A DNA stretch of 64,000 bases from Escherichia coli (GTDB lineage Bacteria; Pseudomonadota; Gammaproteobacteria; Enterobacterales; Enterobacteriaceae). Each line of letters opens with the position of its first letter. Within the stretch, counting starts at the first letter, position 1. The DNA lies in the NCBI RefSeq assembly GCF_030384885.1, contig NZ_CP128613.1. The stretch is one strand, 5' to 3'. The notes beneath the pieces were generated by a model, which saw nothing but the letters and a program-made list of their open reading frames with translations, did no database searches and had not been told where the DNA came from. Shown here one piece after another: positions 12,893 through 63,888 of the stretch. The position numbers and the translations under genes are program-made.

Positions 12893-13149
12893 TCTAAAAT
12901 CCTCGGAGATGTGATCTGCCCGGCATTAAACCGCACAGATATAAAAGTGAAAAAGGGGGCCATATGCAGGCCCCCTAACCAAACGTGTACTACCTGGTCT
13001 ATAAGGGCTCTCCCCCTTCATATTTCGCGCCGCAGATGCGTTGTCTTCGCTCGCTCATCCCGGTCACTTACTGATGTAAGTTCCCGGGAATTCTCGAGCT
13101 TGCCGCCTTTCTGCAACTCGAACTATTTTGGGGGAGTTATCAAGCCTTA

Positions 13150-27184: not shown

Positions 27185-28624
<1,440 letters not shown>

Positions 28625-41320: not shown

Positions 41321-41653
41321 AAAAATCCCTTAATTATGAGTCAATAAAGCATGATTCCATTCCAGAGAGGCTGGGCAGGACTTGATAAATATTGATAATA
41401 TAAATATATGCAAATAATAAAATTATTTTAGATTAGAGCAAAAAACACATTACATGTCTATACGACATATAATAAAAAGGTTACAACCATCTGAAATTTA
41501 AAGATTTGTTCTTATTCTCAAAAATATAAAATCATAAATTAAAAATATAAATTCACCCCATTAGATTCATTAAATAAATACTTATTATATTTATCTATAT
41601 AACGTCATAGTAATCTATTACGCTCTCCGCATCAGCGGAGAGCTATTACGATA
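41321..41653 (-). promoter_or_regulatory. AT-rich control region upstream of accessory fimbrial operon (promoter expected here), including a perfect stem-loop next to the mrcB stop
   Basis: 333-bp strongly AT-rich non-coding stretch with many A/T tracts; 10-bp inverted repeat CGCTCTCCGC-atca-GCGGAGAGCG near 41623..41646; no promoter elements could be assigned with confidence. Confidence 0.4.
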
Positions 41654-44188
41654 TTAATTACTACCAAACATATCCTTGATCCAACCTGCTACGCCGTCAC
41701 TGTCTTTCTGCTCTTGCTGATCAGGTTGCTGTTGCGGCTGTTGCTGCGGCTGAGAAGACTGATCAAACGGATTGCCTGACGGTTGCTGCTGCATCTCACT
41801 CTGCTGGCACAGCGATTGCGGATCGCTGGTCCAGACCGGTAAGACACGCATGCCACCGCTGCAGACAAAGTTGCCGTCGTAGTCCACGCCCATATCAGCA
41901 ATGTCTTCTGGCGGAACAAGATTCAGCGGTGTTGGCGTCTGGTTAGCCAGATAACGCTGATAAATCGACATTGCCCCACTGGCACCATACAGTTTGGTCG
42001 GCTGGTTGTTATCACGGCCTACCCAGGTGATGGTCACCGTGCTGCCGTCAATGCCCGCAAACCAGGTATCCACGTTGTTGTTGGTAGTCCCGGTTTTGCC
42101 CGCCAGATGCAGGTTCGGGTATTTCGCCCCAAGCTGACGACCCGTACCGCGTTGTACCACCTGCTGCATGGTCCATAGTGTCAGATACGCCGCCTGCGCC
42201 GGAACCGCGCGTTCCGCCTGCGGGAAGCTCTGATACAGCACCTTGCCATCTTCCGCAATTACCGAACGCAGCGCAGAAAGTGGTGCACGGTTACCGCCGC
42301 TGGCGATGGTCTGGAAAGCCTGCGCCACTTCGATTGGCGTTAAGTTCAACGCCCCCAGCAGCATTGCCGGAACCGGATGCAGCTGATCTTTCGGTACGCC
42401 CAGTTTAATCCAGGTATCCGTAACCGCAGGCAGCCCCAGCGCCATCCCCAGATTTACCGTCGGCACGTTCATCGAACGAGTCAACGCATCCACCAGCATC
42501 ACTCTGCCACTTTCGCTATAACGACGATCATCGTTCTGCGGTGACCAGACCTGACCGTTCGGCTGACGCAGCGCGATTGGCGCATCGGCAATCCACGTGT
42601 TCAGGCGATAGATTCTCGGCTGGCTTAAGGCCGTCAGATAAGTCGCTGGTTTTGCAAGGGAACCAATCGAACGACGCGCCTGCATCGCACGGTTGTAACC
42701 TGCAAACTGCGGCTCAGAACCACCAACCATCGCGCGAACTTCACCGCTAAAGCGGTCGACAACCACGATTGCCGTTTCCAGATCGCTCAGCTTTCGCTGT
42801 TTCTTCAGCGCCGGAATACCCTCCACGGCGGCTTTTTCTGCCGCGTCCTGGGCCACCGAGTCAAAGGTAGTGAAGATCTTCACGCCGGAGAGATCTTTCA
42901 CTTTATCGCCCAGTTTCGCCTGTAGCTCCTGACGCACCAGTTGCATAAAGGCTGGCTGTGGAGAGATTACCCCACCACGCGGCTGAACCCCCAGCGGACG
43001 CGCGCTGAGCATTTCATACAGTTCGCCGTCGATAATCTGTTGCTGTTGCAGCAGACGCAGTACCAGATTACGTCGCTCCAGCGCCAGTTTCGGGTTACGC
43101 CACGGATTGTAGATGGACGCCCCTTTCACCATACCCACCAACAGCGCCTGCTGGTCGAGGCTCAATTCTTCTACCGGGCGACCAAAGTAATACAAGCTCG
43201 CCAGCGGGAAGCCGCGGATTTCGTTGTCGCCGCTCTGACCGAGATACACCTCGTTCATATACAGCTCAAGAATACGGTCTTTGCTGTAACGCGCGTCCAT
43301 GATCAGCGCCATGTAGGCTTCGTTCGCTTTACGCCAGTAAGAACGCTCGCTGGAGAGGAACAGGTTTTTCACCAGCTGTTGCGTCAGCGTACTCGCCCCC
43401 TGCACCGTGCGTCCGGCGGTCAGGTTTGCCAACACCGCACGTCCGATGGAGTAGAGACTGATCCCATCATGCTCGTAAAAATGACGGTCTTCTGTTGCCA
43501 GCAAAGTATCCACCAGCAGATCCGGGAAACCACTGCGCGGCACAAACAGACGTTGCTCACCGTTTGGCGAAGAGATCATGGTGATCAGACGCGGATCAAG
43601 ACGGAAGAAACCAAACTGACGGTTGTTCTCCATATTGACGATCGTCGCCAGATGATCGCCATCAAAGGTCAGACGCGCACGCACCTGTCCTTCTTTGCTG
43701 TCCGGGAAATCAAACGGACGACGGATCATCTCAATGCTGTTGGCCTGCACGGTAAATTCGCCAGGGCGCGTCATTTTCGACACCTGACGATACTGGGTCG
43801 CCTCCAGCAGCTTCACCATCTCGTTTTTGCTGATGGTCATGTCTGGCTCAAGGTTGACCATTCGGCCATAAACAGCCGCAGGCAATTGCCAAACTTTGCC
43901 ATCAATACGGCTACGAATTTTTTGATCGAGATAAACACCGTAAATGGCGATCAGCACGGCAAAAACGATAGCCAGTTTTAGCAGCAGCCATAGCCAGCCG
44001 CGTTTGCCACGAGGCTTACGCCCTTTGCCTTTGCCCTTACCTTTGCGCGGCATCGGTTCTTCATCCTCATAGTCATCATAATCGTCGTAATCATCGTCAT
44101 CTTCGTAACGACGACGGCTTACCTTTTGTTTGACCGGACGCGTCGGTTTCCCTTTGCGTCCAATTGGCTCGCGGTCATTCCCGGCCAT
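41654..44188 (-). CDS. mrcB: Penicillin-binding protein 1B (bifunctional glycosyltransferase/transpeptidase)
   Basis: Track ORF 41654..44203; start placed at [22 protein letters not shown] (844 aa); acidic [15 protein letters not shown] tract. Confidence 0.95.
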
Positions 44189-60020: not shown

Positions 60021-60872
60021 GTGTTAATTATCGAAACCCTGCCGTTGCTGCGTCAGCAAATTCGCCGCCTGCGAATGGAAGGCAAACGCGTGGCGCTGGT
60101 GCCTACTATGGGTAACCTGCACGATGGTCATATGAAGCTGGTCGACGAAGCCAAAGCCCGCGCCGATGTGGTCGTCGTCAGTATTTTCGTTAACCCGATG
60201 CAGTTTGACCGCCCGGAAGATCTGGCTCGTTATCCACGAACCTTGCAGGAAGACTGCGAGAAGCTAAACAAACGTAAAGTGGATCTGGTTTTCGCTCCCT
60301 CGGTAAAAGAGATCTATCCGAACGGTACAGAAACCCACACCTATGTCGATGTTCCAGGCCTTTCCACCATGCTGGAAGGTGCCAGCCGTCCAGGACATTT
60401 TCGCGGCGTATCGACCATCGTCAGCAAACTGTTCAACCTGGTCCAGCCGGACATCGCCTGCTTCGGTGAAAAGGATTTTCAGCAACTGGCACTGATCCGC
60501 AAAATGGTTGCCGATATGGGCTTTGATATTGAGATTGTCGGAGTGCCGATTATGCGCGCGAAAGACGGTCTGGCGCTCAGTTCCCGTAACGGCTATCTGA
60601 CGGCGGAACAACGTAAAATTGCGCCGGGTCTGTACAAGGTCTTAAGTTCAATTGCCGACAAATTGCAGGCTGGCGAACGGGATCTCGATGAAATTATTGC
60701 TATTGCCGGGCAAGAACTGAATGAAAAAGGTTTCCGTTCCGATGATATTCAGATTCGCGATGCCGACACCTTGCTGGAAATCGCTGAAAACAGCAAACGA
60801 GCGGTGATTCTGGTAGCCGCCTGGCTTGGCGATGCTCGCCTGATCGACAACAAAATCGTCGAACTGGCGTAA
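60021..60872 (+). CDS. panC: Pantothenate synthetase
   Basis: Track ORF 283 aa; [37 protein letters not shown]. Confidence 0.95.
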
Positions 60873-60891
60873 TACTTATACTCTAAATAAT

Positions 60892-61005
60892 TCAAGTTGC
60901 AGGAAGGCGGCAAGCGAGTGAATCCCCAGGAGCTTACATAAGTAAGTGACTGGGGTGAGCGAACGCAGACGCAGCACATGCAACTTGAAGTATGACGAGT
61001 ATAAC
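60892..61005. repeat. ERIC (IRU) enterobacterial repetitive intergenic consensus element
   Basis: GTGAATCCCCAGGAGCTTACATAAGTAAGTGACTGGGGTGAGCGAACGCAGACGCAGCACATGCAACTTGAAGTATGACGAG closely matches the ERIC consensus; intergenic between convergent panC and rpnC. Confidence 0.75.
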
Positions 61006-61092
61006 TGGCGCTACGGCTGATGGCGCCAATTATTAATTTGCCCCACATCATGGCGATGACGTCTGTAAGCGATTATTCATATCGCAGGCAAT

Positions 61093-62001
61093 TTAGTTAA
61101 TCAGCTTATCAAGCTCAGCAAGAGGTAAATTTGCCATCTCTGCAACGTCTTCCCGAGACATTCCTTTACTCAGAAGACGCAGGGCGAATTCTTGCCTTTC
61201 CTCCTGTCTTCCCAGCTGAATCCCCTTCTCAATCCCCTTCTCAATTCCCTTCTCTTCAAACCACTGCGCCAACGTCATCATAGACTCCCCTCCCGTTTCC
61301 CTGTCTCTCACCACACCATAAAACAAATCCGCTTGTTCAGTATGACCGCGTTGCAGCATATAGTTTTGCATGGCAACTAACTGACTTCCGCTAGTGTACC
61401 CTTCGTCAATCAGCGTGACCAGTTGCTCCAGCAATAACATTAAGTCGCGCTGGCGAATATGTTTTTGCAGCAGTTCGAGAATCGCAATCCGCCGATGTTG
61501 CATGATTTCGTCATCCGGTGTGATAGTGATATCCACCAGCGGGAAAGGACTGTTATAGACGCGTCGCGCCAGCTCCGGCGAGTAAAACATATCAAACCAG
61601 CACATTGAGAGTGGATAAGGCGTGGCCTCGCCCTGATAAAACAAAATCGGCACCACCAGCGGCAGCTTATCGTGGTCAGCCTCCAGATGCCGGTGCATGG
61701 CGGCAATAGAATAACGCATCATACGAAACGCCATTTTTTTGTCCGGCTTGCTTTGGTGTTCAATCACAACATGTAGATAGCCCGTATTACCCTGCATTTG
61801 CACGGAATAGAGCACGTCAGTGCTGTGCCCTTTCAGGCTTTCTTCAATAAAACTCCCCGACTCAAGATGCAGCGTGTCGAGATCACACAGTTCGCGTAGC
61901 TCCGCTGGCAAATGGATATCCAGAAAGTCGCGAGCCGTTTCCGCGTGCATTAAAAATTGTTTAAACACCGCATCATGCGGTGTGGTACTCGGTGCATCCA
62001 T
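61093..62001 (-). CDS. rpnC: Rpn-family recombination-promoting nuclease / transposase_31-like protein (YadD/RpnC)
   Basis: Track ORF 302 aa MDAPSTTPHDAVFKQFLMHAETARDFLDIHLPAELRELCDLDTLHLESGSFIEE; YhgA/Rpn family features; no flanking inverted repeats seen. Confidence 0.85.
   Translation of the reverse strand: MDAPSTTPHDAVFKQFLMHAETARDFLDIHLPAELRELCDLDTLHLESGSFIEESLKGHSTDVLYSVQMQGNTGYLHVVIEHQSKPDKKMAFRMMRYSIAAMHRHLEADHDKLPLVVPILFYQGEATPYPLSMCWFDMFYSPELARRVYNSPFPLVDITITPDDEIMQHRRIAILELLQKHIRQRDLMLLLEQLVTLIDEGYTSGSQLVAMQNYMLQRGHTEQADLFYGVVRDRETGGESMMTLAQWFEEKGIEKGIEKGIQLGRQEERQEFALRLLSKGMSREDVAEMANLPLAELDKLIN
61219..61254. repeat. In-frame 12-bp x3 tandem repeat inside rpnC (encodes EKGI-EKGI-EKGI)
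   Basis: AATCCCCTTCTC AATCCCCTTCTC AATTCCCTTCTC read directly on the + strand. Confidence 0.7.
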
Positions 62002-62274
62002 CTTCCCTGCCTTCCGTGTTGTCTTGCGTGAAGGCAGTATCCAGTCAAGGCGCGCCGTCGTCAGCCGCCTCTTTAGTGTTTACCGAGCAGCGTTCAGAGA
62101 AATTTCAATTGGTTACAGGTGTTACATGGCTCGCTTCGGCACGGTACGCAAACTGCTGATGCAAATGCCGTCAGATGAGTAGACACTAAACAAAAATCGG
62201 GCAATACTGCGTGAGAATTTCCTCAAAGCAGGCACCGCCTGCTTCGTTAACGACAGGGTAGAAAGGTAGAAGTT

Positions 62275-62655
62275 ATGATTCGCACGATGCTGCAGGGCAA
62301 ACTCCACCGCGTGAAAGTGACTCATGCGGACCTGCACTATGAAGGTTCTTGCGCCATTGACCAGGATTTTCTTGACGCAGCCGGTATTCTCGAAAACGAA
62401 GCCATTGATATCTGGAATGTCACCAACGGCAAGCGTTTCTCCACCTATGCCATCGCGGCAGAGCGCGGTTCGAGAATTATTTCTGTTAACGGTGCGGCGG
62501 CCCACTGCGCCAGCGTCGGCGATATTGTCATCATCGCCAGCTTCGTCACTATGCCGGATGAAGAAGCCCGTACATGGCGACCCAACGTTGCTTATTTTGA
62601 AGGCGACAATGAAATGAAACGTACCGCGAAAGCGATTCCAGTTCAGGTGGCCTGA
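62275..62655 (+). CDS. panD: Aspartate 1-decarboxylase (pyruvoyl-dependent)
   Basis: Track ORF 126 aa [38 protein letters not shown] (G-S self-cleavage site). Confidence 0.95.
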
Positions 62656-62658
62656 TAA

Positions 62659-63888
62659 TCACCCCTGCGGCTGGTTACTCACCAGCCGCGACATCGTCTC
62701 CAGCGAATCCGTTCTTAAGATATAAAGCCGTTTTAGTAACAACGGATTATCCCCCGGTTTTACTTTGCCTTTCATGGTGGTCACTGCCAGATGAAATCCG
62801 GCTTCACGTGCCGCCTTCACCGCTTTGTCATTAAAACCGCCAAACGGATAAGAAAGATACAAGACATGTGGATTAAACTGCGCCAGCGCCCGACGCGATC
62901 GCGCAAAATCAAACAGAATATTGTGCTCACTACGGCTCAGTAATATGGGGCGGCGATAGCCATCTATCCGATGCAAAAAATGAGTATGTGACTGGAAATC
63001 AAATACATCACGAATTTCGTTAAGCTCAGAAATGCTCATAAATTGCAGCGATTTTGGATCCCATTTCTGCGGGTGACGTTTGATGCGCGAGGTAACAATA
63101 AATGCCGTCGCCTTCATACCATAGTGTTTCAACACAGGATACGCATAGCGGCTAACCGACTTGAGACCATCATCAAAGGTAATCACCACGGCACGTGCCG
63201 GGAGATTAATGTTATTCTGCACGTAACCTTCCAACTGCGTCATGCTCAGTGTCGCGTATCCCCTGTCGCGCAGCCAGGCCATCTGGTTATTGAAGGCGCG
63301 TACCGAGGTGGTCGTCGAAGTATGGCGAAAACGGGTGTTTTCTTCGTCGCGCAGAATATGATGATAGGTTAGCACCGGCAGGCCATTGTCGGGTTGGGCA
63401 TCCAGCGCGCTGATAAAGGCCAGTCGATCGCCAATACGGACCTGATACCAGGTTTGGTTTAACCTGTCTTTCAGTTTATGCAAAATCGGATAACGCAAAT
63501 TGTCCGCCAGTACCCCAAATGGCGCACTGCCCACACTCGGCGCGTTATAAACCGGCGTATCTTTCCAGGTTATTAAGTTCTGATTACTCAGCGGCTTGTT
63601 GAGGTCACCCAAACCGTCTTCAACTTTTTGTCGCCCCTGAACCGGCTCGAGATGACCTTTATCGATAAACCCTTTGCCAAAGCCAAAATTAAATGCGTAA
63701 TAACTTGCGGCAGTGGGCTCCACGGCAATGATTTGTCCGGCCCGAATATTCCCTACCGTCACCATTTTGTCGCCAATTTGCGCCCAAACCGCGGCATTTT
63801 CGATAGTTTGCATATAACGGGCAGGTAATGCGGCACTGACGCTTGTGGTAAACAGCATCAGCAGGAGAATAACAGCTTGTTTATACAT
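62659..63888 (-). CDS. yadE: Polysaccharide deacetylase family protein YadE
   Basis: Track ORF 409 aa, signal peptide [19 protein letters not shown]; NodB-like region (LTYHHI..., VITFDDG); synteny. Confidence 0.85.

Follow-up and report, generated by a model that had tools for sequence, protein, structure and literature searches.

The rpnC gene of the stretch of Escherichia coli DNA analyzed here (64,000 nucleotides, hereafter the window) is very probably a gene-within-a-gene toxin–antitoxin module of the kind published as RpnL/RpnS. Its full-length protein, RpnC_L (302 aa), would be the toxic nuclease, with an intact PD-(D/E)XK domain and, at the C terminus, a small helical domain. RpnC_S, a second protein of 62 aa, would be produced in the same reading frame by initiation at the ATG-ATG pair at 61281/61278 behind a strong Shine–Dalgarno (SD) sequence, probably from a separate short transcript beginning inside rpnC. 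RpnC_S has the sequence of the RpnC_L C-terminal domain; it would bind RpnC_L through the repeat-bearing helical region and block the nuclease. Replication slippage or unequal exchange would be the simplest way for 12-bp units to be gained and lost in place in that region, each step changing the protein by four residues. Toxin and antitoxin would always change together and stay matched, because both are read from the same DNA. Partners with unequal repeat numbers would fail to neutralize each other and, therefore, no allele would cross-react with another or, presumably, with mimics encoded by phages. That RpnC_S is translated, that it inhibits RpnC_L and that the pairing is specific for repeat number is known for the K-12 allele from the literature (PMC10400941); it is reasonable to expect the same behavior from the allele in the window, which carries three repeat units.

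The ORF list places the 302-aa frame on the minus strand at 61093..62001, and it corresponds to rpnC/yadD. It is flanked by panC (60021..60872, plus strand) and panD (62275..62655, plus strand), the placement by which we recognized orthologues, and these neighbors are likewise annotated in 15 E. coli genomes. A segment of 3,909 bp spanning the gene has zero mismatches against E. coli 2013C-4282, in which the gene is annotated rpnC and is 100% identical. A megablast search with the gene found it in 5,424 of the 5,426 complete E. coli genomes. On the panD side, yadE is intact in the window (409 aa, 62659..63888), whereas RefSeq flags the yadE of 2013C-4282 as a pseudogene interrupted by an internal stop; a comparison reaching up to window position 63501 showed no difference and, therefore, the discrepancy lies beyond that position or in the annotation.

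The nuclease part of RpnC looks catalytically intact, because the residues whose mutation was studied in RpnA are all present in the translation. The Transposase_31/PD-(D/E)XK nuclease domain covers residues 7–207 (61381..61983, minus strand; PF04754, E 2.7e-87), and the protein matches the Rpn family model TIGR01784 at E 2.5e-86, scoring 289.9 bits where the cutoff is 52.1. These matches bear out the reading of the gene, made beforehand from the bare letters, as an Rpn/YhgA-like PD-(D/E)XK nuclease. RpnC reads D10, D62, E81, Q83, R93 and PDDE at 162–165, the latter within PDDEI 162–166. Kingston et al. 2017 (J Bacteriol 199:e00787-16) mutated D11, D63, E82, Q84, R94 and D165 (PDDE motif) of RpnA; the RpnC equivalents are all kept, each one position earlier, and this one-residue offset is backed by the match to the RpnA equivalog model (5–255 vs 6–257). 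The same authors reported DNA endonuclease activity, toxicity and SOS induction for K-12 RpnA to RpnD, with RpnC being the weakest of the active four.

Internal in-frame methionine codons, which the earlier note had pointed to, occur at M241/M242 (61281/61278) and at M281 (61161). The first pair opens the nested in-frame ORF rpnC_S (61093..61281, minus strand), a predicted antitoxin gene which shares the rpnC stop and encodes 62 aa from the ATG at 61281 or 61 aa from the ATG at 61278. Upstream of it lies the ten-base SD GGGAGGGGAG (61285..61294, minus strand), whose predicted pairing with the 3′ end of 16S rRNA (−10.8 kcal/mol) is the strongest of seven in-frame ATGs tested, compared with −8.4 kcal/mol at the annotated rpnC start and −4.7 kcal/mol at M281. 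The SD and the ATG-ATG pair are kept in 15 of 15 other alleles aligned, with one G/A polymorphism in the SD. Searching databases with the 62-aa product, we found the short ORF MMTLAQWFEE... independently called by gene callers in many entries, some of them on complete chromosomes. The window allele has, by sequence, an internal in-frame start with a ribosome-binding site leading to a small C-terminal protein, the translation itself having been shown in K-12 only. The internal start of yadD had been mapped earlier by Meydan et al. 2019 (bioRxiv 10.1101/520783), and RpnC_S is among the small proteins seen in K-12 by ribosome profiling and SPA tagging (PMC10400941; bioRxiv 10.1101/520783). An internal in-frame start near the 3′ end of the gene, conjectured in the earlier note, matches this published start region.

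It is very improbable that the small product is instead the 22-aa MSREDVAEMANLPLAELDKLIN (MSREDV...) starting at M281, the second candidate named beforehand. An in-frame ATG with AAGGA directly 5′ of it is there, but these SD-like bases abut the ATG with zero spacer and their pairing is weak, as given above. Located downstream of the repeats, such a product would be without the repeat and most of the domain, whereas the repeats of published RpnS proteins begin 8–20 residues past the first Met (Zhong et al. 2023; PMC10400941). Moreover, gene callers and standalone homologues start at MMTLAQWF or earlier. In the 62-aa product from M241, which we take as RpnC_S, the EKGI repeat begins at residue 10, inside the published range; the repeat had been expected within or just upstream of the small product, and it lies within.

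Nucleotide diversity (π) among 11 alleles is uneven along the gene. The 5′ gene part shows values of 0.02–0.10 and the repeat zone 0.06–0.29, while a 135-nt block immediately 5′ of the internal start (61327..61461, minus strand) is nearly invariant, with 0.000–0.008. This low diversity agrees with Meydan et al. (bioRxiv 10.1101/520783), who reported that synonymous sites are locally more conserved where the internal start of yadD lies. The block probably holds an internal promoter and the 5′ leader of a short transcript; Zhong et al. (PMC10400941) cite dRNA-seq transcription start sites within every rpn gene of K-12. A strict promoter scan returned no internal sigma-70 promoter near the rpnC internal start. 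A lenient one gave a single weak match inside the invariant block (8 of 12 positions, TGGTCA-17-TACACT, 61421..61393), on which we do not rely.

At 61219..61254 (minus strand), Tandem Repeats Finder reported the repeat itself as an array with a period of 12 and 3.0 copies (95% matches, score 65), the top-scoring one of the entire 64-kb window. Other arrays found by the same program are one at 44061..44108 (18-bp ×2.7 or 9-bp ×4, 76–77% match), one at 27499..27521 (12-bp ×1.9) and one at 41528..41553 (13-bp ×1.9). The rpnC array is in frame and its peptide is EKGIEKGIEKGI; on the coding strand the units read, in order, GAGAAGGGAATT, GAGAAGGGGATT and GAGAAGGGGATT, each encoding EKGI. The in-frame 12-bp ×3 repeat described in the earlier note is, thus, present at this location and encodes (EKGI)3, but it is not a perfect triplication: 35 of 36 positions are periodic, the first unit differing by one synonymous change (GGA vs GGG). 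By chance, we estimate, 64 kb would contain about 1e-8 arrays of 36 nt that deviate from periodicity at no more than one position. The array falls in the first helical region of RpnC_S, which is also that of the RpnC_L C-terminal domain, where it would act as a length-variable specificity element. Allele comparison revealed a second repeat type adjoining it, which has two units in the window (RQEE RQEF; 61186..61209, minus strand) and is expanded to 5–7 units of the RQEV type in further rpnC alleles of E. coli.

For the comparison of alleles, 15 further rpnC loci picked across the length classes of the genome search were fetched, giving 16 with the window's own. We counted one EKGI unit in GN04275, two in the K-12 derivative DH1 and in O157:H7, three in the window, 2013C-4282 and MFDS1022581, six in RMDEC465 and PCN033, and seven in AHB10. 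Another five loci (L004, L005, L007, L009 and L012) have zero EKGI units and carry instead runs of 5–7 RQEV/RQEE/IQEV units. Homologues in the databases reach about eight units, and standalone downstream copies contain a third module type, QKGF/QKGY. The length variability anticipated from the letters alone is therefore real, and the comparison of copy number among E. coli rpnC alleles, which had been put forward as the test of it, clearly did not return the same number in all strains. As in the published RpnS proteins, four-residue repeats begin 8–20 residues past the first Met and their number varies between strains. The lengths of the variable segment fall into two classes; inside each class they differ by four residues or a multiple thereof, a rule from which two of 110 database proteins deviate.

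A tandem repeat within the coding region of a defense-type gene could, in principle, act through slippage as an on/off phase-variation (contingency) switch of rpnC. Such a switch is effectively excluded, because the 12-bp unit keeps the frame at every change and all of the 16 alleles are intact ORFs, which differ in length.

The allele in the window is uncommon. Two-copy alleles like those of K-12 or O157 account for about 60% of an evenly spaced sample of ranked genome matches (36 of the 59 rows that are full length). The three-copy allele, judged by sequence search, is rare, with about 4 occurrences in 5,426 complete genomes, because a 121-bp query over the SD, the repeat and the RQEE region was matched with full coverage at ≥99% identity in only four of these genomes. 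The rpnC of RMDEC465 (NZ_CM177019) differs from that of the window by just 5 substitutions in 909 aligned nt, yet it has six units rather than three. Therefore, on this one haplotype, gain or loss of units outpaces point mutation. Fast change in copy number is a prediction of in-place slippage or unequal exchange, and we favor such a mechanism for this repeat.

What such changes would do to the proteins is suggested by the work of Zhong et al. 2023 (PNAS 120:e2307382120; PMC10400941), in which the small protein RpnS was found to block the full-length nuclease RpnL; a commentary (PMC10400984) outlines the same model. According to these authors, RpnS stops the growth inhibition, SOS induction and DNA cleavage caused by the cognate RpnL, and the number of four-residue repeats differs between strains (PMC10400941). 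Using K-12 RpnC, they added one KGIE to the long or to the short form alone and inhibition was lost, while adding it to both restored inhibition (PMC10400941, Fig. 4D).

This experiment also bears on the idea that the repeat lies in a tolerant linker whose low-complexity variation is selectively neutral, drifting by slippage with no effect on natural pairing. We consider that reading improbable. It would be consistent with the glycine-rich composition of the repeat region and with its having the lowest model confidence of the small protein (see below), as well as with the unevenness of the variation, most of the sampled alleles being of the two-copy kind. However, a neutral linker is hard to reconcile with the loss of RpnC_L inhibition when a single partner is lengthened and its return when both are. 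The within-class steps of four residues fit a helix-preserving constraint, and two independent repeat types have expanded at one site. We thus retain the reading in which the repeat tunes the pairing between RpnC_S and RpnC_L.

An AlphaFold monomer of the 62-aa product, built on a 24-sequence alignment, is predicted, with moderate confidence (mean pLDDT 75), to be all-helical. The helices span residues 4–11, 16–21, 26–38, 43–49 and 54–61, so that the first region is broken at the repeat glycines and does not form one long helix. The crystal structure of RpnA_S shows a dimer of three-helix bundles joined through a long first helix (PMC10400941). In our model the confidence is lowest in the glycine-rich repeat region (pLDDT about 60), and a monomer model is a poor test of a dimerizing helix. 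A Foldseek search of this model against the PDB gave nothing below E 0.5 and RpnA_S was not among the matches; the top ones, all non-significant, were helix-turn-helix (HTH) domains of resolvases, repressors and sigma factors. Sequence searches of the PDB with the full protein and with the 62-aa product did not retrieve RpnA_S either; they gave only TrpR, matched at chance level, an ArsR-type repressor and a designed repeat protein. A Pfam scan of the 62-aa product returned no significant family and neither DUF4351 (PF14261) nor PF27070, although the library scanned may predate PF27070, for which many close relatives of the product have a precomputed match (PF27070.1). The same scan gave only weak matches to HTH_7 (E 0.017), HTH_3 and DUF2802. 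The weak Foldseek matches fit the HTH_7 and HTH_3 ones and an HHpred remark in Zhong et al. (PMC10400941). PADLOC, run with a 2023 library without an Rpn model, produced only a weak "putative invertase" candidate model on the C-terminal part.

The HTH resemblance invites the question of whether the repeat is chiefly a molecular ruler for DNA recognition by an HTH-like C-terminal domain, with antitoxin specificity being secondary. The precedent would be the TAEL repeats in the HsdS subunits of EcoR124I and EcoR124II, a parallel drawn by Zhong et al. (PMC10400941), and Kingston et al. 2017 suggested the tail as a possible determinant of DNA preference. Both repeats are 12-bp, four-residue, in-frame and helical, and in both copy number resets molecular specificity. 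However, the TAEL repeat sets the spacing of DNA half-sites, whereas the measured effect of the Rpn repeat number is on the neutralization of RpnL by RpnS (PMC10400941), and the protein families are unrelated. Purified RpnA cleaves DNA with little or no sequence specificity (Kingston et al. 2017), and the HTH matches obtained here are all below significance. We regard a DNA ruler as quite improbable, and keep antitoxin–toxin pairing as the probable role of the repeat.

Compared with K-12 RpnC_L/RpnC_S, the window allele shares the chromosomal site (panD-rpnC-panC), the domain, the catalytic residues, the SD with ATG-ATG and the position of the EKGI/KGIE repeat. K-12 rpnC has two EKGI units and encodes 300 aa ending in ...IDKVINLI, whereas the window allele has three units and ends in ...LDKLIN, with QLG for QQG and RQEERQEF for RQEVSQEF. 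DNA identity over the gene is about 93%. A divergence from K-12 (7%) restricted to rpnC was ruled out, as the adjoining part of panC (60608..60847) is about 91% identical. On the other side, the panD segment (62222..62461) is 99–100% identical. This pattern, read from sequence identity, points to a tract of recombination, or to hitch-hiking, in the neighborhood of the variable rpnC 3′ end. RpnA_L/RpnA_S have the family and the architecture in common with the window proteins: a small C-terminal protein, made by internal initiation, complexes with the long form and prevents it from cleaving DNA. RpnA_S is, on the other hand, a paralogue with another C-terminal sequence, and neither sequence nor Foldseek searches starting from RpnC_S or its model matched it.

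The spacer between rpnC and panC differs among strains. Zhong et al. (PMC10400941) described some strains in which rpnC is followed by another gene for a small protein, rpnC_Ss. At eight of the fetched loci (L003, L004, L005, L007, L009, L010, L012 and L015) a separate gene for a protein of 65–77 aa (MEIKTRRETRQTLAQWFEEKGF...) lies between rpnC and panC and corresponds to the published RpnC_Ss; it is annotated there as "hypothetical protein" or "RpnC/YadD family protein". These proteins are homologous to RpnC_S and have four-residue repeats of their own, QKGF/QKGY/RQEV. The window lacks rpnC_Ss and its spacer has instead an ERIC/IRU element (60876..61004) with 26-nt terminal inverted repeats, in which the ERIC1R (60918..60939) and ERIC2 (60940..60961) primer sequences match perfectly; strains with the downstream rpnC_Ss gene have a spacer without it. 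K-12 also lacks the element, its spacer measuring 73 bp vs 220 bp in the window, and in O157:H7 the element is present but interrupted by about 78 bp of additional sequence. The insertion point is a TA dinucleotide (K-12 CCAGTTAAGTA). Elsewhere in the window, an imperfect ERIC2 primer match with 3 mismatches (13052..13073) is possibly another ERIC-like element. A GC-rich hairpin, TGGCGCTACGGCTGATGGCGCCA (61006..61028), lies between the convergent rpnC and panC, and is also found in K-12; it is probably a bidirectional terminator shared by the two genes. In the window, the ERIC element sits between this hairpin and the end of panC.

A more speculative idea, to which we give little weight, concerns the coexistence of these modules. 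The two independently expandable repeat types (EKGI and RQEV/RQEE) in one helix might constitute a combinatorial self-recognition code, and the 135-nt block might double as promoter/leader and as a fixed recombination anchor through which C-terminal cassettes are swapped between rpnC_S and the downstream rpnC_Ss.

Every element of the earlier note's reading, together with the checks it proposed, is already in the literature. A toxin with the antidote inside its own gene and a pairing tuned by repeats was published in 2023, and RpnC is the very protein of the repeat-number experiment. What is new here is descriptive only: a rare three-copy allele, its near-isogenic six-copy relative and the occurrence of two repeat types at one site. 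To this we add an independent confirmation of strong conservation directly 5′ of the internal start. The three-copy allele and the six-copy allele of RMDEC465 would be a convenient natural test pair, and the natural allele series could extend the published work. Phage defense has been demonstrated for the plasmid-encoded RpnP2 and not for RpnC (Zhong et al.; PMC10400941), and RpnC itself may have a similar role. Taken together, an intragenic antidote and a slipping 12-bp repeat would be a way to keep defense modules from interfering with each other and perhaps to shield them from phage mimics.
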